A stretch of DNA of 64,000 bases from the NCBI GenBank assembly GCA_002412545.1, contig DHVG01000001.1:206766-270765 (forward strand), written 5' to 3'. Position numbers and translations under genes: made by a program. Under the pieces are notes generated by a model that saw only the letters and a list, made by a program, of their open reading frames with translations, had not been told where the DNA came from and did not search any database. Every line of letters starts with the position of its first letter. Within the stretch, counting starts at the first letter, position 1. Below, in pieces: positions 20,217 to 59,456 of the stretch. The stretch is from Elusimicrobia bacterium UBA5214. Its GTDB lineage: Bacteria; Elusimicrobiota; UBA5214.

Positions 20217-23200
20217 TTATTCTTCCCAGCCGAAACGCCAGCGGGGTTCAAGATAAATTTTTCTTTCCGGTGCTGCACTACCCGAAGTAGTTTGTCCTTT
20301 TTCTAATTCGTAAGTTGCCCTCAGGAGCACATCCCCTTTCCAGTGGAAACGATAAGCGAGTTCAAGTTCATGTTTTAAATCAAGACGGTTGACCAAAGTA
20401 TCTAATTTTACGCTGTAACCCAAAAGGACATTTTGTAAGACATATTTCTCAAATGTAACTTTACTGCCCTTAACTAACTCACGCCAATCGGTTGGTAGAG
20501 GAATCTTCTCCGGTGTCATTTCTTTGCCAGTTTCTCGTTCCATTTTTACGGTATCTACCAAGCCAGTGTAACCAAGAATATTTTTTATTAACGGTGTAGT
20601 CAAACTTGTATCTAACCAACGCAATATTTCACGCCGGAAAAGAACCATTTGTTCTTCCTGAGTAAGCGCCGATGTATCTACATTAGCAAAAACATATTTT
20701 AATGCTTTCTCTTGGGTTAATAAAGGATAATTTTTAGAATAAAATTTAGGTTGGGCTTCAACTAATTTACTACGGTCAATGACCATTACTACAGTATCCG
20801 GTGACATTTGTTTACTCTCCGGGTCTAAGACTGAAGTTTTTGTTTCCGCTACCCCTTCAAGATAACAGATATTAGCAATTACTTCAAAAATTGCTTTTTT
20901 TATTTCAAAATTATGGTTCAAATAACTAAGATTGCCCCGTAGTGTTTCAATCTTTCCGTTAACTTTTATTTTGTCTTTATCGGTGGTCAATTTCAAGAAA
21001 CCATTGATATTTGTATCTACTAATTCGTTTTCATACCAGACATTATCTTTAGCTCTAATTTCCAAATTGAAATCAAGGAAGTTAAAGATTTTGTTCCAGG
21101 TTTCATCGGTTTCTTTATCTTTTGGGGGATAGGTAAAATGAGTATTGCTTAATTCAATAATACCATCTAATATTGGTTTGTGTTTTCCTTTGACCATACT
21201 GAGATTAACTTTTATTTCACCTTGGGATGGTGCATAAACTAAACGTTTAAAGACAGTAGAACGCGGAATGACTAAATTTTCCAAAACGATACTTATACCT
21301 TTGGCATTAGTTGATTTCAAAGAAAAAACATAATCTTTTATTTTGAAGTAAGGGAACTCATCCTGGGTAGAAAGAATTAACTCTACTTTTCCATCGGCTT
21401 CAATTTTTCCTTGTCCAATTTTAGCACTTGCCGAACGCAAGAAGATATCTTGTCCACTAAATTCCAATTCAGTATTTAATTCGCTAATTTTTTTTAATCC
21501 ATACTTGGTCTCAATCTCACCGTTAGAAATAGATAAATTACCCTCAATTTGAGGAGAATCGGTGTTTCCTTTGATTATTATTTTACCGTTAATCTTTCCT
21601 TTTGATTCACTAATTTGGGGAGTTATATTCTTTAAAAAGGAAAGGTTTCCTTCTTCTAATGAAAGAGTAAGAATAAATGATTTCAGTCCAAATTTATCTT
21701 TTCCGGTTAGGGGAAGTTCACCAAACCCGCTGAGTGAATATTCCCCGGGAGAATAAACCTTCAAATTGTCAAGAAAAAAAGTATTTTTTTCTAAACGGAA
21801 ACTGGTAGTAAAAGTAGTAAATGATAATTCATATATTTTACTTTTGTTTAAGTTAAATTCACCAGTGATTAAAGGTTGGTGATAAGAACCCTTAGCAAGT
21901 AATTTAAAATTTATTTCTCCTTGGCAAGGAATCTTCTGGTTGGTTAATTCAACTAAATCCGGGAGAGAGAACTTTTCACTATTTAGAGAAAAAGTGAAAT
22001 TGTTTTCTTCAAACATTCCTTGAGCAGTAAGAATTGTTTTTCCTGCTTGAGTTAAATTTAAACTTTTCAAATAAACTTTAGGATATTGGGTAAAATCAAT
22101 TTCACTAGTGAGATTTTGGAATTGTTTCTCAGCAGATAAAAAAGTCAATTTTCTATTTGTGTATTGAATGTAGAATTGCGCTGTTCGAAAATTATGTTGG
22201 TTAATCCAAAAATTATCAGTATTGACTTTTGCCTCAAGAATAAGTTCCTGAGCAGTTTTTATTTCACCATCTAAGTTTAATTTTCCAAATAGAATTAAAT
22301 TTGCCAAATGCAAATTGCGTATTTCGGTAAGAAGAATAAATTTATCTTTTTCAATATATGAACCATCAAGAAAATAAATTTCACTTTCTTTAATCTTAGT
22401 CTGAAACGAATCAAATAAAATTCGTTCTTTTTCGTTATGTAGTTTGAGTTTTGTTTTTTCCAAGATAAGATTTTTGGAGAGAAGAAGTTTCTCACTTTCA
22501 ATTAATCCAGTTAATTTCAGGTAATCACCTTTGAAAACTGAAAGAGGGTCATCTATGTTTAACTTACTTTTTATTTCACCAGAAAAAGGTTCTTGGAAAG
22601 AAAAAGATGTCTCTAACTTTAGAGGTGACCGAAATCCGTCATCTTGGATGGCAGAGCCTTTGAGTAAAAATTTTATCCCCTGCCAGTTTCCTTCTTGAAT
22701 TTTAAATTTACCTTCTAATTTAGGTTGGGACAGTTTACCGGTTAAACTAAAAAACGCATCAAATTTACCATCAGGAGAATATTTATTTTTTCCACCGGAA
22801 GTAATTATTTTTTCTAATCTTTTCAAATCAATAGGTTTAATTTCAAGTGTTCCTTTGATTTCTTCTTTCCCTTGTGGAGAAAAACTCACTTCACTTTCTA
22901 TTTGAGCAAAATCATCAATTGAAGAAAAAAAAGTTAGGTTCTTATTAGCATAATGAATTTTCCCTTGCGCCTTTTCTAAATTTATCTGATTGATTTGTAT
23001 TGGTGAAATTGAAAAATCAGCATCAAGTTCCCCGGAAGAGAATTTATGTGTACCGGTAATGTCTAAAATTCCGTTAAGAAGAGTATTTGACCAAGAAAAA
23101 TTTCTTGCTTCAGTATGAGAAACAAATTTAGAAATATTTAACTGCCGGTCAGTGCTGACTGACTGCCGGTCGGTGCTAACCGACTGCCAGTTAAGTTGGA

Positions 23201-28600: not shown

Positions 28601-28632
28601 AGGAACTCCTTTTGCGTTTTCGCGTTATTGGG

Positions 28633-29169
28633 TTATAGCGTTTTTGCGTTAAAAGTAAGTTTACGGAGTCGGTCACGTATTTCTGCAGCCTGTTCGTACT
28701 TTTCGTTCTTGATTGCTTCTTTCAGTTCTTTCTGTAATGAAACAATTGTTTCTTTTATTCGTTTATCGTCTGTTGGTGTTTTTTCTTCTCCATTACTGAC
28801 CATTGAGGTTAATTTCTTCCCGGTATGACACGGGAAACCATGAATACGTTTCAAGAGCGGAGCGAGTTGTTTATAAAAAGTTTGATAGCAGTCACTGCAA
28901 CCAAGTCTGCCTGTCTCTCTAAAATCAGAATCGGTTAATCCACAGGTCGGACAACATATTGTTTTTACCACCTTGGGTTCGTTCTCAAAACCTAAACCAG
29001 TCAATCCGGCTAAAAGGTCAGCGAGAGAAAAATGTGGAAATCCTTCACTGACATCAATACCTTTCTTTTTTGCACAATCTTCACATAGATGCATCTTGAT
29101 TACCTGATTATTGATAATTTCAGTAAGATGTATCGTTGCTTCGTTCTTGTGACAGACACTGCAATTCAT
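28633..29169 (-). CDS. mcsA: McsA (protein-arginine kinase activator; zinc-finger plus UVR domain)
   Basis: Paired CxxC zinc fingers (CSVCHKNEA...CEDCA, CPTCG...CSDCY) and a C-terminal UVR-like helix (EQAAEIRDRLRKL). Confidence 0.75.
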   Translation of the reverse strand: MNCSVCHKNEATIHLTEIINNQVIKMHLCEDCAKKKGIDVSEGFPHFSLADLLAGLTGLGFENEPKVVKTICCPTCGLTDSDFRETGRLGCSDCYQTFYKQLAPLLKRIHGFPCHTGKKLTSMVSNGEEKTPTDDKRIKETIVSLQKELKEAIKNEKYEQAAEIRDRLRKLTFNAKTL

Positions 29170-30845: not shown

Positions 30846-30962
30846 TTTTTGTAATACCTGATTACAACGATTTTTTATAGAGTCCGACTACATGGATTAA
30901 TATCCCGATTACAGTGATAAGTCTTTAACTCATAACTCATAATTCATAACTCATACTTTGAC

Positions 30963-32186: not shown

Positions 32187-32270
32187 CTTTTTCTCGCAAA
32201 AGTGCTAAACGCAAAATCACAAAATATTCGCAAAAACGCAAAAGGACTTTTTTGGCGCTTTGGCGGAAAT

Positions 32271-33758
32271 TTAGCGGTTTAGCGTGTCAGGACGTAATAA
32301 CGGAAAAGGTATCGTTTCCCGAATTGAAGAAGTATTAGTTAAAAGCATTACTAAACGGTCAATACCAATTCCTAAACCTGCTGCTGGTGGCATACCGTGT
32401 TCTAAAGCGGTAAGGAAATCCTCATCTAAAAGCATTGCTTCCTCATCACCTTTTGCTTTTGCTTTCGCTTGTTCCTCAAGCCGTTTACGCTGTTCTCTCG
32501 GGTCATTAAGTTCGGAGTAAGCATTAGCAATTTCTTCACCAGCAATAAAGAGTTCAAAACGTTCAACTATTTCTGAGTTATCTTTCTTACTTTTTGCTAA
32601 CGGTGTCCACTTCTTTAGATAATCAGTAACAAAAATCGGTTCGCTTGAGGTGATTACCTCTAATTCAGGTAATATTTTCTGGTCAAAAATATAGTCAAAA
32701 ATTTTATGTTCCGGGGTATCGGTTTTGAGTTCAATTCCTAAATCTTTAGCTAATTTTGCTAAGTTTATATCGGGTAAATCTTCTTTTATTCCGATATATT
32801 TTTTGAATAAGTCAGAAAGTTTAACCCGTTGAAAAGGTAGTTTGAGAGAAATCGTTTTATCTTGATACTCAAATTCTTCTTTACCAGTGATTTCTTTTGC
32901 TAAAAAACAAATCATTTCTTCACTGATTCTCATCATTTCTTCATAGTCAACATACGCTTGGTATACTTCCAACATCATAAATTCCGGATTATGTCGGGTA
33001 GAGATACCTTCATTACGGAAATTCTTGTTCAATTCGTATATTTTTTCATAACCAGCGACAAGTAAACGTTTAAGATGGAGTTCCGGAGCAATCCGTAAAT
33101 ATAAATCTACCCCCAAAGCATTATGGTAAGTGGAAAAAGGTTTTGCGGTTGCTCCCCCAGGTAAAACCTGCAACATTGGTGTTTCTACTTCTAAGAAACC
33201 TTTCTGGTCAAGATAATTGCGAATTAAACGAATAACCTTGCTCCGGGTTTCAACAATTTTATTTATTTCCGGGTTGACAATTATATCTAAATACCTTTGC
33301 CGATAACGGGTTTCTACATCTTTAAGTCCATGCCATTTTTCCGGTAAAGGACGTAATGACTTACTTAAAATTTGAAATTTTTCTACTAAAATGGTTAATT
33401 CACCAGTTTTTGTACGGAAAACTTGTCCTTCCACACCTAAAAAATCAGCTAAATCAATCGTTTTCAAAAAAAGGTCATAATTCTCTTTAGCGACAATATC
33501 CTCTCGTAAATAAACTTGTATTTTTCCTTTACTATCTTGAAGATGTAAAAAGGTTGACCGTCCCATTTCCCGTAAAGAAATAATCCGTCCGGCAAAAGAA
33601 ACTTTCTTTTCACTTTTTTCTCCATTTTTTAAGAAACCAAATTCAGTAATCAGATTTTCACTGGAATGGGTTACCGTAAATTTTGTCGGATAAGGGTCAA
33701 TCTTTTTTTCTTCTAAGATTTTTAATTTTTCTTTTCTCTGTTCTATAAGTTTTTCCAT
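32271..33758 (-). CDS. lysS: Lysine--tRNA ligase (class II)
   Basis: N-terminal OB anticodon-binding domain and class II motifs (FRNEG, GIGIDRLVMLL). Confidence 0.9.
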   Translation of the reverse strand: MEKLIEQRKEKLKILEEKKIDPYPTKFTVTHSSENLITEFGFLKNGEKSEKKVSFAGRIISLREMGRSTFLHLQDSKGKIQVYLREDIVAKENYDLFLKTIDLADFLGVEGQVFRTKTGELTILVEKFQILSKSLRPLPEKWHGLKDVETRYRQRYLDIIVNPEINKIVETRSKVIRLIRNYLDQKGFLEVETPMLQVLPGGATAKPFSTYHNALGVDLYLRIAPELHLKRLLVAGYEKIYELNKNFRNEGISTRHNPEFMMLEVYQAYVDYEEMMRISEEMICFLAKEITGKEEFEYQDKTISLKLPFQRVKLSDLFKKYIGIKEDLPDINLAKLAKDLGIELKTDTPEHKIFDYIFDQKILPELEVITSSEPIFVTDYLKKWTPLAKSKKDNSEIVERFELFIAGEEIANAYSELNDPREQRKRLEEQAKAKAKGDEEAMLLDEDFLTALEHGMPPAAGLGIGIDRLVMLLTNTSSIRETIPFPLLRPDTLNR

Positions 33759-33906
33759 AAAAATCGCGCCAAATCGCCAAAATACTGCTAAATCGCTAAA
33801 AAGAATCTCCGCAAGACCGCCGGGAACTTCATTTTAGGATTTTTTGTGCAAGTGTTTAAGAACTTTTTCAAAATTCATTTTACTAAATTTTTCTCTCTAT
33901 GTCAAA

Positions 33907-35038
33907 CTAATGACTTTCGCTCCTCATTCGCCAATCTAAATAGGACTCAATAAACTGGTCAAGTTCACCGTCCATTACTGCGTTAATGTTGCCGGTTTCC
34001 ATTCCGGTGCGATGGTCTTTAACCATCTGGTAAGGCATAAAGATATAAGAACGAATCTGACTACCCCAAGCAATTTCACCTTTCTCATCGTAATGTTTCT
34101 CTAAAGCGAGACGCTGTTTTTCCTTTTCTAACTCGGAGAGTTTTGCTTTTAGGACTTTTAAAGCGGTAATTTTATTTTTATATTGTGAACGTTCATTTTG
34201 GCATTGGACAACAATCCCCGTAGGGAGATGAGTTATTCTTACTGCCGAGTCAGTTTTCTGTAAATGTTGTCCCCCGTGTCCGGAAGCACGGAAGGTATCA
34301 ATTCTTAAATCTTCATCCTTAATTTCAATTTTGATTGTATCTTCTATTTCCGGTAAGACATCGCAGGAAGCAAAAGAGGTATGTCTTCGTTTATTAACAT
34401 CAAAAGGTGAAATGCGCACTAAACGATGGACACCGATTTCTGATTTCAAATAACCGTAAGCATATTCACCTTTGACTAAGAAAGTTACACTTTTTATTCC
34501 CGCTTCTTCACCCGGAGAAAGGTCAGTAATAATTGTCGGATATCCTTTCTTATCTGTCCAACGGAGATACATCCGGAGAAGCATCTCACACCAGTCACAA
34601 GCTTCCGTCCCACCAGCCCCGGCATGTAAAGTCACAATTGCATTGTCTCTATCTTCCGGTTGAGAAAGTTTAAGCCGAAAATCTAAATTATGGATATCTT
34701 TTTCTAAAGTTTTAACTTTTTCTTCAATCTCAGGGAGAAGAATTTTTTCTTCTTCTGGATGTCCACCTACGGCGGATTCGGCAAGTTCAAGAAGTGTTTC
34801 TAATTCTTCAGTTTCTTTTTTAAGTTGATACCAGGGATGGAGGACTTCTTTTAAATTGTTTAATTCCTGAAGGATTTTTTGTGCTTCCAGTGGGTTAGCC
34901 CAGAATTCTGGCTGGTGAGTTTTTTCTTCAAGTTGACGGATATATTTTTCTTTATTTTCAACTTCAAAGGCACCTCCGGAATTTATCTAATTTTTCTTTA
35001 AAAAGATTACTTTTTTCTTCCCATTCTTTTAACATCAT
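33907..35038 (-). CDS. prfB: Peptide chain release factor 2 with programmed +1 ribosomal frameshift (shift site CTT TGA A at 34969-34964 on the minus strand)
   Basis: The frame-0 N-terminal peptide MMLKEWEEKSNLFKEKLDKFRRCL ends at an in-frame TGA preceded by an SD-like GGAGGTG. The +1 frame continues EVENKEKYIRQLEEKTHQPEFWANPLEAQKIL...TLHAGAGGTEACDW. The downstream part carries the GGQ motif (SGHGGQHLQKT). Confidence 0.85.
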
Positions 35039-36701
35039 TTTTTACCTCTTTTTTAATATACAATAAATTTGCCAAAAAAACAAGAGTTATTCCTAAACCT
35101 AACCAAACAAAAAGATCACCGTAAAGGGTATAAAAAGTCATCTTCTTTTGGGGATAAATTTGTTCGGAAAGATCAGCAGTGATAAATATTGGTGTTTGTT
35201 TGATTACTCTTCCATAAGGGTCAATAAATGCAGAAATACCGGTATTGGCAGAGCGAACTACATATCTGCGGTTTTCCACAGCACGGAAAATGTTCATTGT
35301 GAAATGTTGATAAGGAGCAGAAGTTTGTAAAAACCAAGCATCGTTGGTTAAATTAACAATAATTTCTGCACCGTTTTTGACAAAATTGCGTACTAAATGG
35401 GGAAAAATTGCTTCAAAACAGATGTTCACACCAAACTTGGTGAGTGGTGAGTGGCGAGTGGTAAGTGGTAAATTAAAAACCGTAAAGTCTTTGCCGGAAG
35501 AGAAGTCACCGAGTTCGTTAAGGACTTTAATATACTTGGAAAGAAAATCTTTTAAAGGGATAGTTTCGCCAAAAGGGACAGGATGGATTTTATCATATTC
35601 GGCAAGTAATTTTCCTTCTGGTGAGAAAAGAAATACTGAATTATAGAGTTTATCTTTTTTGTAATGGACTGAGCCGATAAGATGGTAACAATTACTCTGT
35701 TGAATAATCTTTTTTACCTGTTCATAAAGATGTCGTTCATAAAGAAGATATCCGGGAATAGCACTTTCGGGCCAGATTATCAAAGAGGGTGATTGGGTAA
35801 TTCGGTGATTAGGTGATTGGGGATTAGGAATGGATAAGCGAGTAGTTTGTTTGATGAGATTTTCGTAAGTGTCCATAATTTCTTTTTCATATTCTTTTGA
35901 CCATTTTTTGTATTGGTCAATGTTGCCTTGAAGTAAAACTACCATAAGTGGTGAGTGATTAGTGGTTAGTGGTGATTGGTGAGTGGTGTGTGGTGAAAGG
36001 ACCAAAAACCCATAGACCAAACAAAATAAAAAAACAGTTAAAGTAGGTAAAACTATTCTTATTTTTTCTCGCCACTTCCCACTTCCCGCCTCCCACAACC
36101 TAAATAAGGTAGTGTTTACTAAAACAATAAGGAAGGATACACCGTAGACACCGGTAAATTCAGAAATTTGTATAACCGGTAAAAAATTCCATTGGGTATA
36201 GCCGAGTAAAGCCCAAGGGAAACCAGTAAAAAGATGACTGCGGAGATATTCTAAGGAAACCCAGAGAAAAGCAGAAAATAAGTTGATAGTTGGTAGTGGA
36301 TAGTGGATAGTGAAAAGACGGAAACAAAGAGTAAAAAATCCAAAATAAAGAGCGAGATAGGCGGATAAAAGGATAAGACAAAGAATGCCAAGGAATAAAG
36401 ATTCGCCAGCAGTGGTAATGGTAGTAACAATCCAATAGAGTAAACCTAAATATGCAAGAAAACCCGTCAAAAAACCTAAAATAAAAGCACTTTTAGGAGA
36501 TGAATTTTCAATTGCTAAAAAAAGTGGAATTAAAGCAACCCAAGCAAGAGGGAAAAGGTTAAATTTAGGAAAACTTAGAATAAGCAGGAAAGTGGAAAGT
36601 AAAAGATAAACCCTGCCCTTTTGTTTAGAAAAGTTTTGTTTTTGGGGGATAACTTTTGTGAATTTGTCATATATCTTAAACAAAGGGGCGGGGCATTTCA
36701 T
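35007..36701 (-). CDS. lnt: Apolipoprotein N-acyltransferase Lnt (with several in-frame heptamer-repeat insertions)
   Basis: Multi-TM N-terminal domain plus a C-terminal CN-hydrolase domain with the catalytic Cys context GVNICFEAIFP. Repeat-encoded segments PLTTNHSPLTTNHSPL, SPNHRITQSPS and HHSPLTKF occur within the ORF. Confidence 0.75.
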   Translation of the reverse strand: MKCPAPLFKIYDKFTKVIPQKQNFSKQKGRVYLLLSTFLLILSFPKFNLFPLAWVALIPLFLAIENSSPKSAFILGFLTGFLAYLGLLYWIVTTITTAGESLFLGILCLILLSAYLALYFGFFTLCFRLFTIHYPLPTINLFSAFLWVSLEYLRSHLFTGFPWALLGYTQWNFLPVIQISEFTGVYGVSFLIVLVNTTLFRLWEAGSGKWREKIRIVLPTLTVFLFCLVYGFLVLSPHTTHQSPLTTNHSPLMVVLLQGNIDQYKKWSKEYEKEIMDTYENLIKQTTRLSIPNPQSPNHRITQSPSLIIWPESAIPGYLLYERHLYEQVKKIIQQSNCYHLIGSVHYKKDKLYNSVFLFSPEGKLLAEYDKIHPVPFGETIPLKDFLSKYIKVLNELGDFSSGKDFTVFNLPLTTRHSPLTKFGVNICFEAIFPHLVRNFVKNGAEIIVNLTNDAWFLQTSAPYQHFTMNIFRAVENRRYVVRSANTGISAFIDPYGRVIKQTPIFITADLSEQIYPQKKMTFYTLYGDLFVWLGLGITLVFLANLLYIKKEVKNDVKRMGRKK

Positions 36702-37615
36702 TTGCTATTTTTTTCTGTCGGTTGTGGTGTTTCCTTCTTGGGAGGAAGTTCTTCCTTTTTTCGGGTTTCGTCTTCTTGGACATAACCACGCAAGAGCCAG
36801 TGTTTCTGAGCAGCGATGATCAGTTTTTTTACTTCTTCAACAGTTTTTTTTGCTTCTTCAATAGTTTCCTGGACTTTGGTCACTGTCGGTGGAGCTTGAG
36901 CCGCTGACTTTTCTAAATTTTGACTTGCCATTTCTAAGTTACCAAGAATTCTCTTTGTGGTGCTAAATACTTCTTCAGCATTTTTGTACATTTTTCTATC
37001 ATCTTTGAGCAAGTAACCAATACTTCCTTTACCTTCATTTAGTTCAGTAGTAATCTCCCGAATGTTTTTCAGGACTATAGACAGTTCACCTTCCGGAGAG
37101 ACTAATTTTTCCGTAATTTGAAAAATATTATCAGAAATTTTTTCTATATATTCCAGGGTCGGAGTAATTTTCTGGGCAATATCGGTTATTTCTACTGCCA
37201 TATGCGCAGAGATTTTATCTTCATTTTCCAGAATTGGTGAATCAACTGCCCCGAGCGTAATATTAAGAAATTTTTCACCGGCTAGACCTTCGCGAGCTAT
37301 ACTTACAATTGAATTGTTTCTAATTTTTTCTTGGAATTTTTTTCTTATCTTCATAACTACTTCAACTTTATTTTCCGGAGTGAAATTTACCGAATCAACT
37401 GTACCTACTTCAATACCCGCAAGTTTAACGATTGTCCCGGGAGTTAGACCATAACCTTCATTAAGTATAGTCCGGATACGGTAGTCCTGTTCGAACATTC
37501 CTTTCTTTTTCCCAACAAAGAAAAAGGTTAAAAGAAGAAAAATTAAAGAAAAAAGAACAAAAAAAGTGATAATTTTTTCTAAAGTTTTAATCGAATAACG
37601 ATGGATATAATGCAT
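36698..37615 (-). CDS. mlaD: MlaD-like MCE-domain protein
   Basis: N-terminal TM plus the MCE domain motif (LNEGYGLTPGTIVKLAGIEVGTVDSVNF). Sits in an mlaE-mlaF-mlaD gene order. Confidence 0.75.
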   Translation of the reverse strand: MHYIHRYSIKTLEKIITFFVLFSLIFLLLTFFFVGKKKGMFEQDYRIRTILNEGYGLTPGTIVKLAGIEVGTVDSVNFTPENKVEVVMKIRKKFQEKIRNNSIVSIAREGLAGEKFLNITLGAVDSPILENEDKISAHMAVEITDIAQKITPTLEYIEKISDNIFQITEKLVSPEGELSIVLKNIREITTELNEGKGSIGYLLKDDRKMYKNAEEVFSTTKRILGNLEMASQNLEKSAAQAPPTVTKVQETIEEAKKTVEEVKKLIIAAQKHWLLRGYVQEDETRKKEELPPKKETPQPTEKNSK

Positions 37616-47208: not shown

Positions 47209-48567
47209 TTAATAATCAATATTAAAAAACTTTTTTAAATTTTGTCTTGCAGTTTCACTTCCTAAATCTGCCGCTTTTTGCCAGTCACTAATGCTTAATT
47301 TATTTAATCCTTTTTTATAATAAGCGACTCCACGATTATAGTAGGCATCTTCATGTTGTGGATATAAATCTATAGCTTTATTGTAATCTTTTATTGCTTC
47401 ATCATATAACTCTTTATCTATATAAATAGAAGCACGGTCATTATAAACAAAACGAAGTACCCACTCACTAGCTTCAAAAACTTCATCTTCTGGAAATAAA
47501 ACTAAGACTGCAGTAGTAATATCAAAATTACCTGTCGTAATTTTCGCTCTTTCAGTCCCGGAAGATGATAATACCCAGAAGTATGTTGTAATTTCCGATA
47601 ATCCGAAGTAATTGTAATTTGGGATTGAAGCTAATTGAATCGCTTCCGTATAATCTTGTATTGCTTTGTCATATAATCCTAATTTTCTATAAATGCCCCC
47701 GCGAATTCGATGTGCATTTGCATTTCTAGGTTTTAGTTCAATCCATTTTGTATAGTCGCTTATTGCCATGTAATTCAATTCCTTATTGGCATAAGCATCA
47801 CCGCGGTTCTCATAGGCATATGCATATTCGGGATTTACTTTTATTGCCTTTGTATAGTCTTCTATTGCTTCGTCATCCAATTTTTTATAATAATGATAAA
47901 TAAACCCACGGGCAATGTATGCCTTTGCATATTTTGAGTCCAATTCGATTGCTTTTGTAAAATATTCTATTGCTTTATCAAAAAGATGTAAATAATATAC
48001 TTCTTCACCTTTAATAAACCATTGGTATGCGGTTAGGTTTTCGGTCGGATTAACTTTTATTTCTTCTTTTTCTTTTTCACCCAAAACAATTTTCAAACTA
48101 TCCAATAAATTAAACGCAATTTCATCTTGAAGTTTAAAAATATCGGATATATTACCAGTTATTTCTGCTGTGTCAATTACTTCCCGGGTTTCCACATCCA
48201 CAAATCTTGCCGTAACTCTTAGTTTATCTCCCATAACCTGAAAAGAACCAAAAACTAACACATCGGCGCCATACATTTTGCCTATTTCAACTGCGGTTTT
48301 TTCATCAACGGCACCTGAATACTGAAACTTTATCTCTTCTAATATTTTTGACAGATATTCTCTTTCAAGTACGGTTATTTCGCTGACTTTAACTATTTTT
48401 GTAGTTAAGGTTTCTGAAAATCCCGCACCTATCCAGTTTTTTTCTTTATCTTCGGTTATATTTTGAAAAGGGATTACTGCAATATTTTTTGTCTGATTAG
48501 ACCCCTTCGGGGATAATACGGGGCAAGTAACAAACAAGATAATAATGGCTAGAAATATTTTTTTCAT
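47209..48567 (-). CDS. Lipoprotein with CsgG/FlgP/LpoB-like N-domain and multiple TPR repeats
   Basis: Lipobox LFVTC. N-domain NIAVIPFQNITEDKEKNWIGAGFSETLTTKIV...VLEREYLSKILEEIKFQYSGAVDEKTAVEIGKMYGADVLVFGS. C-terminal TPR units (AYIARGFIY, AYENRGDAY, AYYNRGVAY). Confidence 0.6.
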   Translation of the reverse strand: MKKIFLAIIILFVTCPVLSPKGSNQTKNIAVIPFQNITEDKEKNWIGAGFSETLTTKIVKVSEITVLEREYLSKILEEIKFQYSGAVDEKTAVEIGKMYGADVLVFGSFQVMGDKLRVTARFVDVETREVIDTAEITGNISDIFKLQDEIAFNLLDSLKIVLGEKEKEEIKVNPTENLTAYQWFIKGEEVYYLHLFDKAIEYFTKAIELDSKYAKAYIARGFIYHYYKKLDDEAIEDYTKAIKVNPEYAYAYENRGDAYANKELNYMAISDYTKWIELKPRNANAHRIRGGIYRKLGLYDKAIQDYTEAIQLASIPNYNYFGLSEITTYFWVLSSSGTERAKITTGNFDITTAVLVLFPEDEVFEASEWVLRFVYNDRASIYIDKELYDEAIKDYNKAIDLYPQHEDAYYNRGVAYYKKGLNKLSISDWQKAADLGSETARQNLKKFFNIDY

Positions 48568-49994: not shown

Positions 49995-51383
49995 TTAGCC
50001 GGGAGTGACTTTTGCGATAGGCTGAAATTTATCTTTTTTGCGCAGGAGTTTGTGGTAGGAAATAGCGAAGCGGTGGGCTTCGTCACGAATCCGCTGGAGT
50101 AGTTGTAAAGCCGGTGAATTTGCCGGTAAATTAAGAGGTTTACTTTTTTTCGGCAATCCCTCCTTCACTAAAGCTTCCTCTTTCGCCAAGGCTTTAGAGG
50201 ACAAGTCGGAGGGCAGGTAGATTTCTTCTTTTTCTTTAGCTAAAGCGATTATAGGTAGTGTAAGGTGTAAGGTGTTAAGTGTTTCCACTGCGGTAGATAG
50301 ATGTCCTTTACCACCGTCAATGAGAATAAGGTCGGGAAATTTCTCCCCCGCTTCCAGAATTCTTTTGTATCGCCGGGAAAGAACTTCGCTAATCATTTTA
50401 TAATCGTCAATTTTATTTACTGTCTTTATTTTATATCTCCGGTATAAGTTTTTGTTCGGTTCACCTTTTTCAAAAACAACTAAAGAACCTACTGCCTGTT
50501 TACCGGAAATATTGGAAATATCAAACGCTTCAATATGTAAAGGTACATTGGGTAAGGAGAACAACTTTTTCAGTTCGCTTAAACCTTGAGTAATTTTGAT
50601 TTTTTTCGGTAAATCTGTTTCTCGGACTTCTTTAAAATCAATCCGCTCGGGAATATTTTGGATTGCGGAAATCGTATCGCGGATTTTTCTTGCTTCTTCA
50701 AAATCAAGTTTTTTTGAATATTGCTGCATTTGTTTTTCTAAATGCTTAAGTAATTCTTGATGGTTCCCTTCTAAAAAAAGAATAACTTGGTTAACTATTT
50801 CCCGATATTTTTTTTGACTAATTTCACCAAGACAGGGTGCGGGACATTGTTTTATATGATAATAAAGGCAGGAACGCACTTTTTTTTCCGGTATCGGTGT
50901 ATCTTTAGAAAGCGGGTATTTACAGAGACGGAGTGGGAACACCCGCTGTAACCAGCGTAAAGTCCTGCGGGTTTGTCCGACTTCAGTGTAAGGTCCGAAA
51001 TAACGGGCATTTTTTACTCTCCCTTCCCGTTTTCTTGCCAGGAATAAACGCGGAAACTCTTCACCCAAAGTGAGCATTAAATGCGGGTAGGATTTATCGT
51101 CCCGCCAGAGGATATTGTATTTCGGCTGGTATCTTCTAATCAGTTTACTTTCTAAAATTAACGCTTCGGTTTCGGTTTTTGTTACCAAGTAGTCAATTTT
51201 GGCAATTTGCGGGAGCATAATTGCATTTTTTGTAGATTGTTCAATATGTGGGTAAAAATAGGAAGCGACCCGTTTTTTTAGAGAAGTAGCTTTACCGATG
51301 TAGATGATTTGACTGCTGCTATTCTGCATTAAATATACGCCGGGTGCAGAAGGTAAGTTTTTCAGTTTTTCTTTTAGATTCAT
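49995..51383 (-). CDS. uvrC: Excinuclease ABC subunit C lacking the C-terminal (HhH)2 domain (462 aa)
   Basis: N-terminal GIY-YIG domain (APGVYLMQNSSSQIIYIGKATSLKKRV), the UvrBC-interacting region, and the RNase H-like endonuclease domain (IEAFDISNISGKQAVGSLVVF...YRRYKIK, DLILIDGGKGHLS, RDEAHRFAISYH). The ORF ends right at MITE copy A. Carries a GGTGTAA heptamer-repeat insertion at 50256-50284. Confidence 0.8.
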   Translation of the reverse strand: MNLKEKLKNLPSAPGVYLMQNSSSQIIYIGKATSLKKRVASYFYPHIEQSTKNAIMLPQIAKIDYLVTKTETEALILESKLIRRYQPKYNILWRDDKSYPHLMLTLGEEFPRLFLARKREGRVKNARYFGPYTEVGQTRRTLRWLQRVFPLRLCKYPLSKDTPIPEKKVRSCLYYHIKQCPAPCLGEISQKKYREIVNQVILFLEGNHQELLKHLEKQMQQYSKKLDFEEARKIRDTISAIQNIPERIDFKEVRETDLPKKIKITQGLSELKKLFSLPNVPLHIEAFDISNISGKQAVGSLVVFEKGEPNKNLYRRYKIKTVNKIDDYKMISEVLSRRYKRILEAGEKFPDLILIDGGKGHLSTAVETLNTLHLTLPIIALAKEKEEIYLPSDLSSKALAKEEALVKEGLPKKSKPLNLPANSPALQLLQRIRDEAHRFAISYHKLLRKKDKFQPIAKVTPG

Positions 51384-54711: not shown

Positions 54712-55298
54712 TCACTTCGGCTTGGTATTTTTCGTTCAGAAGCACCAGTAACGGTGCCGAAACCATATATCGTACGATGTAAAATATCACGGGATAAAAT
54801 ATTCCAAAGCTCCTCCCGTGCATCTTCTTCAGTAATACCTCCGGGTAATGTCGGGGCAAGAAAACGATATACACCTTCAAGATTTTTTTCTTCCCAGAGC
54901 GGTTCTTCTTTATCTTTTTCGTAAAGGGCAAGGTCAAAAATTACCCAGAGTTTATATTCTTTAACAACAAAATCAGCAGTATAAGTTAGCGGTTCAAGTA
55001 CATAACGAGTGATTTCACCCTTGATTAGAGCATCAGCATTTTCTTCTTTAGTAATTTCTAACCGTCCGTCACGAAGAAATTCTTCAATTACTCTTAAAGT
55101 AAACTTTTCCTCAATTCCATAGTAAATAGTTTTATTTTCAAAAGTAGGAATTACAATCTTCTTTATGTTGGGCGGTAGAATTTGAGGAGCGGGCATATAA
55201 CCGGCACAACCAATTAAACCAATAACCAATAACCAACAACCAATAACCAGCGAGATTTTTTTCATTTGTTTTTCCTCCCGATATTTATTGAGTAACAA
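54708..55298 (-). CDS. lptE: LPS-assembly lipoprotein LptE-like
   Basis: Lipobox LIGCAG and about 190 aa. Sits between leuS and holA, as in the conserved leuS-lptE-holA operon. Its signal peptide region carries a CCAATAA heptamer repeat. Confidence 0.5.
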   Translation of the reverse strand: MLLNKYREEKQMKKISLVIGCWLLVIGLIGCAGYMPAPQILPPNIKKIVIPTFENKTIYYGIEEKFTLRVIEEFLRDGRLEITKEENADALIKGEITRYVLEPLTYTADFVVKEYKLWVIFDLALYEKDKEEPLWEEKNLEGVYRFLAPTLPGGITEEDAREELWNILSRDILHRTIYGFGTVTGASERKIPSRSE

Positions 55299-57861
55299 TA
55301 TTTACTAACTTTTTACGAATATGGATAATTTTATTTATTTTTTTGTTAGAGAGATAATTTTGTACTTTTGTTTCGTTCAGGACTTTTTCTTCAGTTTCCT
55401 TTTCCGTAAGCAGAGAGTCAACTTTTATTCTCGTCCGTAATTTGCCATCAATCTGAACCGCAATTTCAATTTCCTCCGAAGTCAATAATTGAGAATTATA
55501 TTCTGGCCAAGGAAGATAATCAAGTTCCAATTTATCAGAAGCAAATTTTTCCCATAACTCGTTGCTTAAATGCGGAGCAAAAGGATGGAGAAGGAGAATT
55601 AAATTTTTTATTGTTTCTCGCGATGTGTTATCACCAAGATAATTATAACGATAAAGAAAATTGACTAATTCCATAATTGCCGCAATTGCCGTATTGAACT
55701 GTATTCTTTTTTCAATATCTTCAGTAACCCGTTTGATAGTCAAATTTGTCAAACGAACAAGTTCCTTAGTTTCAGGTTTCAGGTTACCGGTTTCAGGTTT
55801 TTTCTCTCCACTTGTAACTTGTAACTTGTAACTTGTAACTTGATTTACTAAGCGGTATACGCGGTTCAAGAAACGCCAGCAACCTTCAATACCTTGTTCT
55901 GACCATTCTAAATCCTTTTCCGGTGGACTGGCAAAGAGGATAAAAAGTCGTAAAGCATCAACACCATATTTTTCAATCATTGTTTCCGGCTCAACAACAT
56001 TTCCTCTTGATTTGGACATCGCTAAACCGCCGAGGGTAACCATCCCTTGGGTAAGCAGATTAGTAAAAGGTTCATCACAGGTTACTAAGTTCAAATCACG
56101 CATTACTTTATGAAAGAAACGGGCATAAATCAAATGCATACAAGCATGTTCAATTCCACCGACATACTGGTTCACCGGTAGCCAGGGATTAACTTTATCC
56201 GCAGCGAAAGGTAGCTCATTATTCTTCGGGTCACAATAACGAGCATAATACCACGAAGAATCAACAAAAGTATCCATCGTATCGGTTTCCCGACGAGCAG
56301 GTGAATTACATTTCGGACATTTAGTTTCTACAAATTCTTTTACCTTAGTGAGCGGTGATTCTCCGGTACCGGTAAAAGGGACATCTTTGGGTAAGGTTAC
56401 CGGTAAATTTTCTTCTTTTTCCGGAACGATTCCACATTGTTCACAGTAAATCATCGGTATTGGTGTTCCCCAGTATCTCTGTCGTGAGATTAGCCAATCT
56501 TTAATCCGGTATTCAACCTTTCTTTTCCCGAGATTTTTATTTTCTAACCAGCGGATAATTTTTTCTTTACCTTCGTTTGAATCAAGACCATTGAATTCAC
56601 CGGAATTGACCATTATTCCTTCACCTTCATAAACTTGGTGATTAGGTAATTGGGTTATTAGGTGATTAGGTGATTGAGTGATTAGGTTATTAGGTGACTG
56701 ACCGGATGGACGGATAACTTCACGAATCGGAAGATTATATTTCTTTGCAAAATCAAAATCTCTCTGGTCATGAGCGGGAACAGACATAATTGCTCCGGTA
56801 CCATATTCCATGGTTACATAATCAGCAATAAAAACTGGTATTTTTTCGTTATTTACCGGATTAATTGCAAAGATTCCTTCTAATTTTATGCCGGTTTTTT
56901 CAGTTGTCCTTTCCTGGATATTTTTTTGCCGGCATTTTGCTATGTATTTTTTCACTTCGTTATAGTTCTTAATATTTGATTCTAAATTTTTTCCACCCGA
57001 GGCGGATCCGCCTTTGGCGGAAATTATTGGATGTTCCGGAGCAAGAACCATAAAAGTTGCTCCAAATAAAGTATCCGGTCTAGTAGTAAAAACGGTAATT
57101 GTATAATTAGGTGATTGCTCGCCCGCCGTAGCTTTAGCGAAGGCGGGGGTGATTGGGAAATTAACTAAGACACCTTCACTTTCACCAATCCAATTTTTTT
57201 GCATTAAAATTACGCGTTCCGGCCAACCCGATTTTAATTTTTCTAAATCGGCAAGCAATTCTTGAGCATAAGCACGAATACGGAAAAACCATTGTTCAAG
57301 TTCTTTCTGCTCAACAAGGAAATTGCAACGCCAGCATTCACCACTTGCTGAAACTTGTTCATTAGCTAATACGGTTTGACAAGAAGGGCACCAGTTCACC
57401 GCTGATTTTGCGCGGTAGACTAACCCTTTTTCATAAAATTTTAAAAAAAACCATTGATTCCATTTGTAATATACAGGTTCACAAGTAGCAATTTCTCGTG
57501 TCCAATCATAGGATATCCCCAGATTTTTTAATTGTTTACGCATCTGGGTAATGTTATCTTTTGTCCATTGGGAAGGACTTATTTGCCGTTGAATAGCGGC
57601 ATTTTCTGCTGGCATTCCGAAAGCATCCCAGCCGATTGGATGAAGGACATTGTATCCTTTTCTTCTTTTGTAGCGGGCTAACACATCTCCAATAAGATAA
57701 TTTCGTGCATGTCCCATATGTATTTTCCCTGAAGGATAAGGATACATTACTAAACAATAATAGTTTTTCTTTTTCGGGTCAGGATGTAGGTTATATATTC
57801 CTTCCTCCTGCCAAATTTTTTGCCATTTAGATTCTATTTTCTTGAAATCGTATTTATCCAT
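55285..57861 (-). CDS. leuS: Leucine--tRNA ligase
   Basis: HIGH-region motif (PYPSGKIHMGHARNY), KMSKS (LAMSKSRGN), and CP1 editing domain. Carries two in-frame repeat insertions (see findings). Confidence 0.95.
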   Translation of the reverse strand: MDKYDFKKIESKWQKIWQEEGIYNLHPDPKKKNYYCLVMYPYPSGKIHMGHARNYLIGDVLARYKRRKGYNVLHPIGWDAFGMPAENAAIQRQISPSQWTKDNITQMRKQLKNLGISYDWTREIATCEPVYYKWNQWFFLKFYEKGLVYRAKSAVNWCPSCQTVLANEQVSASGECWRCNFLVEQKELEQWFFRIRAYAQELLADLEKLKSGWPERVILMQKNWIGESEGVLVNFPITPAFAKATAGEQSPNYTITVFTTRPDTLFGATFMVLAPEHPIISAKGGSASGGKNLESNIKNYNEVKKYIAKCRQKNIQERTTEKTGIKLEGIFAINPVNNEKIPVFIADYVTMEYGTGAIMSVPAHDQRDFDFAKKYNLPIREVIRPSGQSPNNLITQSPNHLITQLPNHQVYEGEGIMVNSGEFNGLDSNEGKEKIIRWLENKNLGKRKVEYRIKDWLISRQRYWGTPIPMIYCEQCGIVPEKEENLPVTLPKDVPFTGTGESPLTKVKEFVETKCPKCNSPARRETDTMDTFVDSSWYYARYCDPKNNELPFAADKVNPWLPVNQYVGGIEHACMHLIYARFFHKVMRDLNLVTCDEPFTNLLTQGMVTLGGLAMSKSRGNVVEPETMIEKYGVDALRLFILFASPPEKDLEWSEQGIEGCWRFLNRVYRLVNQVTSYKLQVTSGEKKPETGNLKPETKELVRLTNLTIKRVTEDIEKRIQFNTAIAAIMELVNFLYRYNYLGDNTSRETIKNLILLLHPFAPHLSNELWEKFASDKLELDYLPWPEYNSQLLTSEEIEIAVQIDGKLRTRIKVDSLLTEKETEEKVLNETKVQNYLSNKKINKIIHIRKKLVNIVTQ

Positions 57862-57882
57862 TATTGCTTAATACAAATTTTT

Positions 57883-57928
57883 ATTCGTGTATATTCGTGT
57901 ATCTTTTTACATTCGTGTGTATTCGTGT
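57883..57928. promoter_or_regulatory. Four direct copies of ATTCGTGT (spacings 10, 18 and 10) immediately upstream of the leuS start
   Basis: Read directly from the sequence. The same heptamer family occurs upstream of mcsA (29181-29245) and inside tlyA (58975-59045). Confidence 0.4.
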
Positions 57929-58579
57929 TTATTTAATTGTCATTAATGCTTGGGCAACATATTGTTTGACTTGTTCGTCTTTTAGACCTAATAATAATGC
58001 CGGTACTGCTGGACGACCGATATTACCTAATGCTTCGGCAGCGTAACGACGGACAAAATCGTTTTCATCTTTAAGTGAACGATACAATGACGGTATTGCT
58101 CGCGGGTCAGCGATACAACCCAAGGCAATAGCTGCTTTCATTCGTGCTACTGCACTCGGGTCTTCCAGAGATTTAATTAAAGCCGGAACCGCTAAACGGT
58201 CACGCAGATGTCCCAAAACACCCGCTACCGTAATTCTCACTTCTTCACTCTCATCATGTAAAGTTTCAATCAATGCTGGAACTGCTTTATGTTCTCCGAT
58301 ATACCCTAAAGCAATCGCTGCTTTTTCTCGGACATATTTTGAAGGGTCTTTAAGCGAGAGTATAAGTTGGTCAACTGCTTTCTTTTCTTTCATTCTTCCG
58401 AGTACTTCTGCAGATACTGCCCGCACAAATGGTTCCCTATCTTTCAAACTGTCAACCAAAGCAACATTAGTTTTCTTTTTCAATTCTTCTTCCACACTAA
58501 CCGGTACTCTTTTTGGAGCAAAGATGATTTTCATTCCTTCTTTGAGCCATTCTCCACCGACAAAACGTATTTTTTTCAT
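57929..58579 (-). CDS. HEAT-repeat (PBS-lyase type) protein
   Basis: Tandem repeats of about 31 aa of the form ...R..AA.ALG.IG...AVP.LI..L.D....VR..AA.AL... Confidence 0.7.
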   Translation of the reverse strand: MKKIRFVGGEWLKEGMKIIFAPKRVPVSVEEELKKKTNVALVDSLKDREPFVRAVSAEVLGRMKEKKAVDQLILSLKDPSKYVREKAAIALGYIGEHKAVPALIETLHDESEEVRITVAGVLGHLRDRLAVPALIKSLEDPSAVARMKAAIALGCIADPRAIPSLYRSLKDENDFVRRYAAEALGNIGRPAVPALLLGLKDEQVKQYVAQALMTIK

Positions 58580-58622: not shown

Positions 58623-59456
58623 TTATTTCTCCATTGCAATTAGATATTCTGTGTTACCTTTTGGTCCTTTTAATGGCGAAGGAATTATTCCAGATATTCC
58701 CAACCCTAAATTTTGCATAAATTTTTTTATTTTTTCAATAACTTCATCCTGAATTTTTTTATCTTTAACTACTCCCTTTTTGACTTTATCTTTTCCTGCT
58801 TCAAATTGTGGTTTAATCAAAGCAATAATTTTACTTTTTTCCTTTAACAATTCGCAGACCCTCGGCAAGACTTTTTCTAAAGAAATGAAAGAAACATCAA
58901 TGGTTACTAAGTCGGGGAGAAGAGAGTTGAGAGTGGAGAGTGGATAGTGGATAGTTTTAGGGTTGAGAGTTGAAGAGATTCGTGGGGATTCGTGTTCAAT
59001 AATTCGAGGTAATTCGTTTTCTATAATTAGTGCCAATTCGTGTTTACCAAAGTAACGGATATTAGTTTTTTCAATATTTACTACCCGTGGGTTGTTTCTC
59101 AACGACCAGTCAAGTTGTCCGTAACCCACATCTAAGGCATAAACCAATTTTGCACCGTGTTTCAATAAACAATCAGTAAAACCGCCGGTTGATGCACCGA
59201 CATCAAGACAGATTTTATCTTTTGCTTCAATATTAAAGAAAGAAAGTGCTTTTTCTAATTTTAAACCTCCGCGGGATACATAAGGGAACCTTTTCCTGAC
59301 TTCAATTTTAGAGTCGGGGTCAATTAATTTGGATGGTTTACTAATTTTTTCTTGGTTAACATAAATTTCACCAGCAAGGATAAGTCTTTCCGCTTTATTG
59401 CGTGTGTTAACTAACCTTTTCGTTACTAATAATTTATCTAACCTTTCTTTTCCCAC
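58623..59456 (-). CDS. tlyA: TlyA-family rRNA 2'-O-methyltransferase (S4 domain plus FtsJ-like methyltransferase)
   Basis: N-terminal S4 motif (RLDKLLVTKRLVNTRNKAERLILAGEIYVN), then an AdoMet-binding motif (LDVGASTGGFTD). Contains an insertion of about 125 nt of tandem repeats (58921-59045). Confidence 0.8.
   Translation of the reverse strand: MGKERLDKLLVTKRLVNTRNKAERLILAGEIYVNQEKISKPSKLIDPDSKIEVRKRFPYVSRGGLKLEKALSFFNIEAKDKICLDVGASTGGFTDCLLKHGAKLVYALDVGYGQLDWSLRNNPRVVNIEKTNIRYFGKHELALIIENELPRIIEHESPRISSTLNPKTIHYPLSTLNSLLPDLVTIDVSFISLEKVLPRVCELLKEKSKIIALIKPQFEAGKDKVKKGVVKDKKIQDEVIEKIKKFMQNLGLGISGIIPSPLKGPKGNTEYLIAMEK

Follow-up and report, generated by a model that had tools for sequence, protein, structure and literature searches.

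Families of tandem heptanucleotide repeats, such as the cyanobacterial STRR, TAACTGA and GGGAATC, have been known for decades and have been treated as intergenic elements. In the survey of long simple sequence repeats (SSRs, with units of 5-11 nucleotides (nt); Mrazek 2007, as summarised in PMC4679880), heptanucleotides are the commonest class in many bacteria and polymerase slippage is proposed as their origin, while the units likeliest to occur in coding regions have a length divisible by three. Stop codons restrict the orientation that heptamer repeats can take within open reading frames (ORFs), and the few copies located there lie in variable surface loops, such as LSVINYQLS in an RNA polymerase beta-prime-like protein (PMC4679880). 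Here we describe tandem arrays of 7- and 8-nt units that lie in frame in lnt, the gene for apolipoprotein N-acyltransferase (Lnt), and in other conserved genes of Elusimicrobia bacterium UBA5214. The DNA analysed is a stretch of 64,000 nt (contig DHVG01000001.1 of assembly GCA_002412545.1, positions 206,766 to 270,765 of the forward strand), which is hereafter called the window and is numbered from its first letter. These are probably old STRR-like arrays of one Elusimicrobiota clade, kept by slippage, gene conversion and selection on reading frame, orientation and loop position.

The G+C content of the window is 36%, and the proteins nearest to its Lnt and its leucyl-tRNA synthetase (LeuRS) come from Elusimicrobiota metagenome-assembled genomes. 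The lnt gene lies at 35007-36701 on the minus strand and is an intact ORF of 564 amino acids (aa) with five arrays inside. Its product scored 356 bits (E=3e-106) against TIGR00546, for which the equivalog cut-off is 132.9, and is on this basis an Lnt. Both PF20154 (LNT_N, the N-terminal membrane domain) and PF00795 (CN_hydrolase) were matched. The protein could be aligned over its whole length to the structures of E. coli Lnt (5VRG, E=1.4e-40). In this alignment IIWPES, YDKIHPVPFGE and NICFE line up with the WPE, K and C motifs of 5VRG, so that the catalytic Glu-Lys-Cys triad is present; the columns of E312, K371 and C428 are invariant among 18 Lnt homologs. An AlphaFold model of the window Lnt, with 18 homologs in the alignment, had a predicted template modelling score (pTM) of 0.86. 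In a collection of 5.8 billion proteins the window LeuRS (ORF 55285-57861) was found at 100% identity (P0121, NCBI), and the window Lnt was absent, its best match being 67% identical. The repeat-laden lnt may have been left uncalled as a protein in the source annotation, and automated annotation may be tripped by such arrays.

Arrays were detected with Tandem Repeats Finder (TRF) and with our own periodicity scan, to which a threshold was applied. We call those of lnt A to E in the order of the coding strand, and all are given on the minus strand. Array A (36281-36313; TRF 36281-36312) consists of 4.6 copies of the heptamer CACTATC, a rotation of ACTATCC, and encodes FTIHYPLPTINL (aa 130-141). 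Array B (36072-36096) has 3.6 copies of GAAGTGG on the coding strand and encodes LWEAGSGKW (aa 202-210). In array C (35947-35996) the heptamer CACCACT occurs 7.0-7.1 times, giving the peptide SPHTTHQSPLTTNHSPL (aa 236-252). No G occurs on the coding strand of array C, for which an RNA fold energy of 0 was obtained. Array D (35787-35828; TRF 35788-35828, with periods of 8 and 16) contains 4-5.2 copies of the octamer AATCACCT and encodes PNPQSPNHRITQSP (aa 292-305); the octamer is reminiscent of the 3' end of 16S rRNA. Array E (35438-35471; TRF 35438-35469) has 4.6-4.9 copies of ACTCACC/ACTTACC, the unit of array C, and encodes LPLTTRHSPLTK (aa 411-422).

The initial annotation had listed these arrays, counted in the plus-strand direction from E to A, as five heptamer tracts. 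All five were indeed found by TRF in the intact ORF, but array B, its fourth tract, is weak: the TRF score was 36 with 83% matches, and the array fell under the threshold of our scan. Moreover, the site of array B is equal in length to that of the closest ortholog (locus L001), so that no length has been added there. The second tract, array D, had been assigned a 7-nt unit, which has to be corrected to the 8-nt unit given above. The spans that had been said to preserve the frame (33, 40, 49, 29 and 31 nt) are not consistently multiples of three; that the frame is kept is borne out by the intact ORF and by the comparison with orthologs. The peptides quoted for the tracts were approximate, and the actual ones are SPHTTHQSPLTTNHSPL, PNPQSPNHRITQSP and LPLTTRHSPLTK.

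In the AlphaFold model all five arrays of lnt lie in loops or turns, each between secondary-structure elements. Array A falls in a short loop (134-137) between the membrane helices 102-133 and 138-157, and array B (202-211) in a turn (206-209) between the membrane helices 185-205 and 210-235. Array C forms the linker between the membrane domain, from its last N-terminal helix, and the strand with which the nitrilase-like domain begins; it is coil at 241-251, with a predicted local distance difference test score (pLDDT) below 50 at 243-246. Array D belongs to the periplasmic nitrilase-like domain, where it lies in a surface coil modelled with low confidence (pLDDT <50 at 292-300). Array E occupies a beta-hairpin loop directly ahead of the strand that bears the catalytic Cys428, with coil at 412-420. 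E. coli Lnt (5VRG) is shorter than the window Lnt at sites C and D. From the published topology of E. coli Lnt, sites A and B would be cytoplasmic and sites C to E periplasmic.

The arrays are in clear excess over chance. The window contains 12 arrays of period 7, compared with 0.15 in dinucleotide-like shuffles, and the periods 4-6 and 8-13 gave only 0-3 arrays each. In lnt, 4-5 arrays were found within 1.7 kb, against 0.37-0.39 expected (Poisson P = 6e-5 to 6e-4).

The comparison with relatives covered 80 Elusimicrobiota lnt loci, with one genome per species, together with contigs from exact-protein look-ups. In fifteen related lnt sequences from about 13 species (47-67% aa identity), the arrays fall on the five alignment sites A to E, and the units are usually species-specific. 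These are loci L001, L003, L006-L011, L014, L015, L074 and L087-L089, together with the protein P0036, for which there is no DNA. The number of strong arrays per lnt in the nearest clade ranges from one to four. The lnt of L012 (47% identity) has no arrays; a frameshift in this gene was considered and rejected, since translation gives an intact gene. A cluster of 517-aa Lnt proteins (86-96% pairwise identity) is also without arrays. Among about 34 more distant Elusimicrobiota lnt sequences, a single octamer array occurs in only three (L032, L037 and L042), and a heptamer array in none. The suggestion of a lineage-specific process at the level of the DNA is supported. In the relatives the flanks of lnt (5-20 kb) are nearly free of arrays, at a density about 40-fold lower than in lnt. 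The idea that lnt is a unique target was nevertheless rejected, because leuS, tlyA and lptE of relatives carry arrays too and because the cross-species counts are not independent. The arrays of these three genes were found at conserved sites in two syntenic relatives, L085 and L086. The lnt gene is therefore the richest host and not the sole one.

Low-complexity loops shared with relatives had been named beforehand as an outcome that would mark the tracts as ancient protein features. Such loops are common to the relatives, and the sites are accordingly old and do not represent recent insertions. The loops, however, still consist of near-perfect DNA repeats with species-specific units, and the arrays are therefore more than ancient protein features. 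The peptides encoded at site A are unlike one another across species (FTIHYPLPTINL, KLSTFNLQLLT, FYSLFAIRYSLFA and SILNSKFSILNSF). Arrays are identical in independent assemblies of the same species (L003=L004=L005 and L001=L002).

Two further length differences were seen in the lnt genes of relatives. At site E, the lnt of L013 carries no array and has a 21-nt repeat (NKIVLRT), of which 3, 1 and 2 copies are present in the three related sequences L013, P0006 and P0023. The identity of P0006 to P0023 is about 90%. In this repeat lies the sole in-frame change of copy number seen directly between relatives. In L009 and L014, an insertion of 22-23 aa (QVCYQRSLGNSNKFDFTRSL) follows the conserved motif ...ASNDYK and is bracketed by repeated DYK.

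The number of copies is quantised in coding arrays. Among 47 of them, 28 have 4.x copies and three have 7.x, and 6.x copies were found in none; ten non-coding arrays have 2-6 copies in a spread distribution (coding versus non-coding, Fisher P=0.003). Array lengths range from 21 to 61 nt and are mostly tight around 30-37 nt, for 7-mers and 8-mers alike. The net gain in length could be read directly at site E, where the loop has 18 residues without an array, 25 in the window (heptamer) and 26 in L001 and L003 (octamers). The gain is therefore 21 or 24 nt (7 or 8 aa), which is exactly three units. At site C, an octamer array goes with one codon more than a heptamer array does in other species, as fits a change of -21/+24 nt. 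Compared with LeuRS without an array, the octamer array of leuS lengthens its loop by 16 aa, or six units. The reading frame is intact in all 16 array-bearing lnt sequences, the window included. Within genes only stop-free orientations are found. The intergenic array at 30926-30955 (plus strand, TAACTCA, 4.3 copies) reads TGAGTTA on the transcribed strand, with stops in all frames. These facts agree with the proposal that selection retains the frame. In the only near-identical strains compared (99.5%) the arrays are identical, and the lengths that differ between species fit three-unit steps.

Outside lnt, the initial annotation had reported such tracts in at least eight other conserved genes. 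The tracts do recur, but in six genes, with eight strong arrays, all of which lie on the minus strand. The lpxB array (12263-12292; ATCAACT, 4.0-4.3 copies) encodes INHQLSTIN, and a uvrC array (50258-50283) has 3.7 copies of ACACCTT. The lptE array (55217-55249; TGGTTAT, 4.7 copies) encodes a hydrophobic stretch inside the lipoprotein signal peptide (LVIGCWLLVIGLIGC); at aa 17-28 of the product it doubles a lipobox-like segment (LVIGC ... LIGC). In leuS three arrays were found: AAACCTG at 55769-55800 (4.6 copies, peptide KPETGNLKPET), CAAGTTA at 55810-55842 (4.7 perfect copies, peptide QVTSYKLQVTS) and the octamer AATCACCT at 56637-56697 (7.4-7.6 copies, peptide SPNNLITQSPNHLITQLPNHQ). A gene for a tlyA/FtsJ-like methyltransferase carries 7.3 copies of ACTATCC/ACTCTCC at 58922-58973, and a polyprenyl synthase gene carries 4.7 perfect copies of AAGTTCA at 61661-61693. 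Since the hosts include cytoplasmic enzymes, the arrays are not confined to envelope proteins. Thirteen of about 17 arrays of the window lie within conserved genes, so that they are not predominantly intergenic; per kilobase, however, the intergenic DNA, which makes up 6% of the window, is still richer in arrays.

Arrays at different places of one genome resemble each other. Over the 64 kb of the window we recognised the cassette families {lpxB, lnt-A, tlyA}, {lnt-C, lnt-E, lptE in the inverted, G/T-rich orientation} and {lnt-D, leuS}. The array lnt-D is identical to part of the leuS octamer array (56637-56697) at 29 of 32 nt, including the irregular unit AAT(T/A)ACCC in both, and lnt-A and its paralogue in the tlyA-like gene agree at 27 of 33 nt and have the same degenerate 3' end. 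Matches of 18-mers from the cassettes in the genes 7472-9571, 59471-61330 and 2321-3394 were dismissed as chance-like. In the relatives, L088 has ACTTACC at sites A, C and D, and L015 has TCCGCAA at sites B and C. The same unit at different sites was found in 5 of 115 within-genome pairs and in 2 of 951 between-genome pairs (P=2e-4, an optimistic value because homologous arrays of related species were counted as independent). Templated copying, which had been offered as one possible origin, is supported by these near-identical cassettes at different sites of one genome, irregular units included.

A comparison of units between species at one site showed how the arrays change. Outside the arrays, the lnt genes of seven species are 78-89% identical in nucleotide sequence; the codons flanking the arrays match base for base, while the arrays differ. 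The unit at site A is CTATTCG in L007, CTATACG in L010, CTACTCG in L009, CTACTCC in L087 and ACTTACC in L014. Between species the units differ by single bases, whereas the 4-5 units of any one species are uniform or nearly so. Site D lies 430 nt from A, and its array co-varies with that of A in L087 (CTACTCC), L010 (CTATACC) and L014 (ACTTACC); in L009 it has the variable unit CTACC(T/G/C)T, and in L007 there is none. These homogenised single-base differences do not rest on P values. Old sites are thus combined with repeats that are continually renewed.

GC-rich hairpin mini-inserts of about 27-60 nt, with the core CCCGCC...GGCGGG, were observed in this genome of 36% GC and in relatives, in frame within leuS or lnt. 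The copy of the window (57116-57152, minus strand) lies in frame within leuS between direct repeats of GGTGATT(G), at a place occupied by CCAATT(A/C) arrays in relatives. Further hairpins are located in L085 (11918-12040), L003 (5730-5765 and 6059-6105) and L011 (10602-10645). They are always inside or beside a heptamer or octamer array and bracketed by direct repeats of unit length. The CAAGTTA array, perfect in the leuS of the window, is interrupted by two such hairpins in L085. The folds are stable in the relatives (z = -3.3 to -3.7), and that of the window copy is weaker (z = -1.6). We considered whether the arrays are leftover 7-8-bp target-site duplications of hairpin elements and rejected this, because relatives have pure arrays at those sites. 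The arrays therefore preceded the hairpins, and it is the hairpins that land in arrays.

Several other repeats of the window and its relatives are recorded here for completeness. Motifs of the ACACGAAT type, about 10 nt apart, occupy the intergenic DNA upstream of leuS (57882-57933). Repeats of the same type occur in L003 (2631-2750), L007 (14907-14969), L008 (12720-12748), L074 (17447-17465) and L086 (1328-1350). In the leader of secA in L003, direct copies are followed by inverted ones. Between L003 and L004, a repeat segment of about 110 nt is fully exchanged for TTACAGTGAT-type decamers with the architecture kept, and this segment contains nearly all differences between the two; L005 was also compared. 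Between genes, at 28610-28651, 32207-32284 and 33767-33781 of the window and at 4123-4151 of L001, there are repeated octamers of a CGCAAAA(N)/TTGCGTTA type. In-frame tandem duplications with a period of 21 nt (7 aa; 2.0-2.3 copies) were seen at 23141-23188 (TamB-like), 36824-36867 (MlaD-like) and 47943-47983. They may be the three-unit outcome of the same process as the arrays, or ordinary duplications. A search of the entire window against Rfam gave nothing at the gathering threshold. Next to lnt, prfB has a classic programmed +1 frameshift site, with CTT TGA after a Shine-Dalgarno-like GGAGGT; it is on the minus strand at about 34969, which places it between lnt and the listed ORF of release factor 2 (33907-34635); the listed ORF therefore seems to begin internally.

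The account that we favour starts from the arrays themselves, their excess over chance, their places in loops, their quantised copy numbers, the conserved sites, the homogenised substitutions and the sharing of units. Slippage and gene conversion would be the molecular processes, and the encoded peptides would be selectively neutral. A local seed of 7-8 nt would be amplified by slipped-strand mispairing or by short templated repair. In genes, the frame would be preserved only by steps of three units, or 21 or 24 nt, and surviving arrays should therefore have 1.x+3 or 1.x+6 copies. The survivors would be those in orientations that are free of stops in all three frames and in loops that tolerate 7-16 extra residues. 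Once established, an array would stay in place as species diverge. Repeated shrinking and regrowth would keep each array uniform, and short-patch gene conversion would homogenise arrays with common units. A base change that spreads in this way to all units and to sister arrays would lead to species-specific units at conserved sites.

It is worth noting that several observations weigh against this account. A passage from 1.x to 4.x copies by single slips goes through frameshifted lnt and leuS, and would thus need a rare multi-unit event or some sheltering. No copy-number polymorphism was seen directly, and the only near-identical strains compared have identical arrays. The sharing of units is also judged by P values that are optimistic, as stated above. 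The near-identical cassettes of 30-33 nt stand at sites with unrelated flanks, as ACTTACC does at A, C and D in L088; this is awkward for homology-dependent conversion and fits active copying better. Site D of L014 has been overwritten with its length unchanged. Finally, the coding strand is much poorer in G than the avoidance of stop codons would predict: 20 of the 47 coding arrays are without G, whereas 24% would be expected.

These observations lead to the most serious alternative, namely that a micro mobile element or a templated addition, in analogy to the STRR and SDR systems of cyanobacteria, actively copies or writes genome-specific cassettes of about 30-35 nt at preferred sites, and that selection then removes those which are out of frame, contain stops or lie outside loops. 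The recurrence of one unit, often with its irregular variants, at unrelated sites of the window, L088, L087 and L015 would follow naturally from such copying, as would the overwritten site D of L014 and the narrow range of array lengths, which is the same in 7-mers and 8-mers. The intergenic heptamers of Xanthomonas and Nostoc also favour four units (PMC4692102), GC-rich hairpin mini-elements are nested in arrays, and an intergenic repeat segment has been swapped whole in a pair of strains with about 99.9% identity elsewhere. Yet the surroundings of the cassettes have no terminal motifs or target-site duplications, no candidate enzyme was recognised within the window, and the net insertion is exactly three units instead of a full cassette length. 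At a single site the units differ by single homogenised substitutions, which argues for descent and not for re-insertion, and at the hairpin sites the pure arrays of relatives show that the arrays came earlier. We therefore regard active copying as fairly unlikely. In a fuller form, the clade would run active cassette writing at fixed permissive loops, as in lnt and leuS, by a mobile element or by a templated repair or addition activity such as has long been suspected for cyanobacterial STRR, with the arrays as landing pads for hairpin mini-elements that are translated in frame. We think this rather doubtful; if it were true, the origin of heptamer repeat families in bacteria could be approached directly in this compact, gene-dense system.

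Selection on the protein is a less probable explanation. The peptides rich in Pro, Thr, Ser, His and Leu could be useful as flexible linkers, of which the DNA periodicity would be a by-product. Every array of lnt is in a loop or linker, and the sites are conserved across species; the AAACCTG array of leuS is almost unchanged in L085, at a LeuRS identity of 78%, and a coding strand poor in G avoids codons for Gly, Arg, Asp and Glu. The peptides at site A, however, are wholly different among species, the extra residues are missing in some relatives and in E. coli Lnt, and protein selection leaves unexplained both the near-perfect nucleotide periodicity and the substitutions that are uniform over an array. 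We therefore consider the linker explanation improbable. The initial annotation had also raised the possibility of contingency loci, in which single-unit slips would toggle lnt and other genes. A gain or loss of one unit would indeed frameshift each array, and the heptanucleotide tract of neuO is ON only at copy numbers divisible by three (PMC13001214). The arrays described here have 4-7 copies, compared with 3-53 (most commonly 20) in neuO, and 16 of 16 array-bearing lnt genes are in frame, compared with 65.6% of neuO genomes that are OFF (PMC13001214). Since L003, L004 and L005, which differ at about 0.5% of sites, share identical arrays, and since the hosts include leuS, for which an OFF state should be lethal, phase variation is very improbable. 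The possibility that the G-rich strand forms G-quadruplexes (G4) or another regulatory DNA or RNA structure, with GGTGAGT and GGTGATTA as candidate units, fared no better when G4 prediction was run. Two-tetrad (G2) motifs are present on the plus strand of arrays E, D and C, and G-rich heptamer repeats of Xanthomonas and Nostoc make G4 in vitro (PMC4692102). A G3+ motif, on the other hand, was found nowhere in the window, and the G4Hunter scores on the plus strand are 0.58-1.10 for four arrays, against a usual cut-off of 1.2-1.5, and -1.28 for array B. Array B is C-rich on the plus strand (CCACTTC) and the lptE array is likewise biased to the opposite strand, so that the plus strand is not consistently G/T-rich, as it had been described. 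Many units of relatives have no G-runs on either strand, and folding of the sense RNA gave no structure for the arrays at all (energy 0). A role for G4 is thus highly improbable. The probability of artefacts of assembly or sequencing, lastly, is close to nil: the arrays are at most 61 nt long, which is below the length of a sequencing read, arrays at homologous sites occur in more than 15 independently assembled contigs (JGI, NCBI, ENA and Logan) with all ORFs intact, and identical sequences were obtained from three assemblies of one species and two of another.

The reading frame acts as a built-in recorder, in which three-unit quantisation, the filter on orientation, homogenised substitutions and the co-evolution of arrays at distances of 0.4 kb to 20 kb can be read. 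Comparative genomics can therefore directly measure how such repeats arise, persist and are converted. The arrays also chart the loops of Lnt, LeuRS and other proteins that tolerate 7-16 additional residues.

How, then, do these arrays compare with known systems? They share with cyanobacterial STRR, with TAACTGA of Beggiatoaceae and with GGGAATC of Xanthomonas the dispersal of a few genome-specific heptamer units over many loci. The intergenic array TAACTCA (30926-30955) is one base off the TAACTGA of marine Beggiatoaceae and some cyanobacteria. The published units (TAACTGA, GGGAATC and GGGGA(C/T)T) are otherwise not matched by those found here (ACTCACC, CACCACT, CACTATC, AATCACCT and others). 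A preference for about four units is common to the repeats of Xanthomonas and Nostoc (PMC4692102) and to ours, whereas the published heptamer families are mainly intergenic and are discussed as regulatory (PMC4679880, PMC4692102). By the definition of long SSRs, head-to-tail copies of a 1-11-nt unit in excess of chance, the present arrays belong to that class; like the repeats of the survey (Mrazek 2007, as summarised in PMC4679880), they are made of 7-nt units, are restricted to certain lineages and can be ascribed to polymerase slippage. They differ from the long SSRs of the survey in that the 7- and 8-nt units of Elusimicrobiota lie in conserved housekeeping genes, at conserved sites and with three-unit steps.

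Two further systems have repeats inside genes. The neuO gene of E. coli K1 likewise contains a coding heptanucleotide repeat (AAGACTC), which changes by slippage and allows a full-length protein only at unit numbers divisible by three (PMC13001214); its 3-53 copies, however, vary within cultures and leave 65.6% of genomes OFF, whereas the lnt arrays are identical between close strains, always in frame and of 4-7 copies. Rickettsia palindromic elements (RPEs) also interrupt conserved metabolic genes that are unrelated to each other; they do so in frame and where the fold and function of the protein allow it (PMC10969869). RPEs are palindromes of about 150 bp that resemble miniature inverted-repeat transposable elements and encode a conserved peptide, whereas arrays of the lnt type are 21-61 nt long and have no inverted repeats and a fold energy of 0. 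The resemblance to RPEs is thus limited to the GC-rich hairpin mini-inserts. Small dispersed repeats (SDR) of Nostoc were reportedly described by Elhai and colleagues in 2008 as very small elements nested in other repeats, heptamer arrays among them. The GC-rich hairpins within our arrays look analogous to these SDR, although the sequences are unrelated.

A search of the literature on Elusimicrobia with repeats returned nothing relevant. To our knowledge, neither the conservation of sites across species nor the co-evolution of arrays has been described for the known heptamer families. As far as could be found, conserved sites, three-unit quantisation and co-evolving arrays in housekeeping genes are undescribed. 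Repeats of a type so far treated as intergenic are here found in frame within conserved enzymes, Lnt and an aminoacyl-tRNA synthetase among them, and in orthologous loops of more than 12 species.

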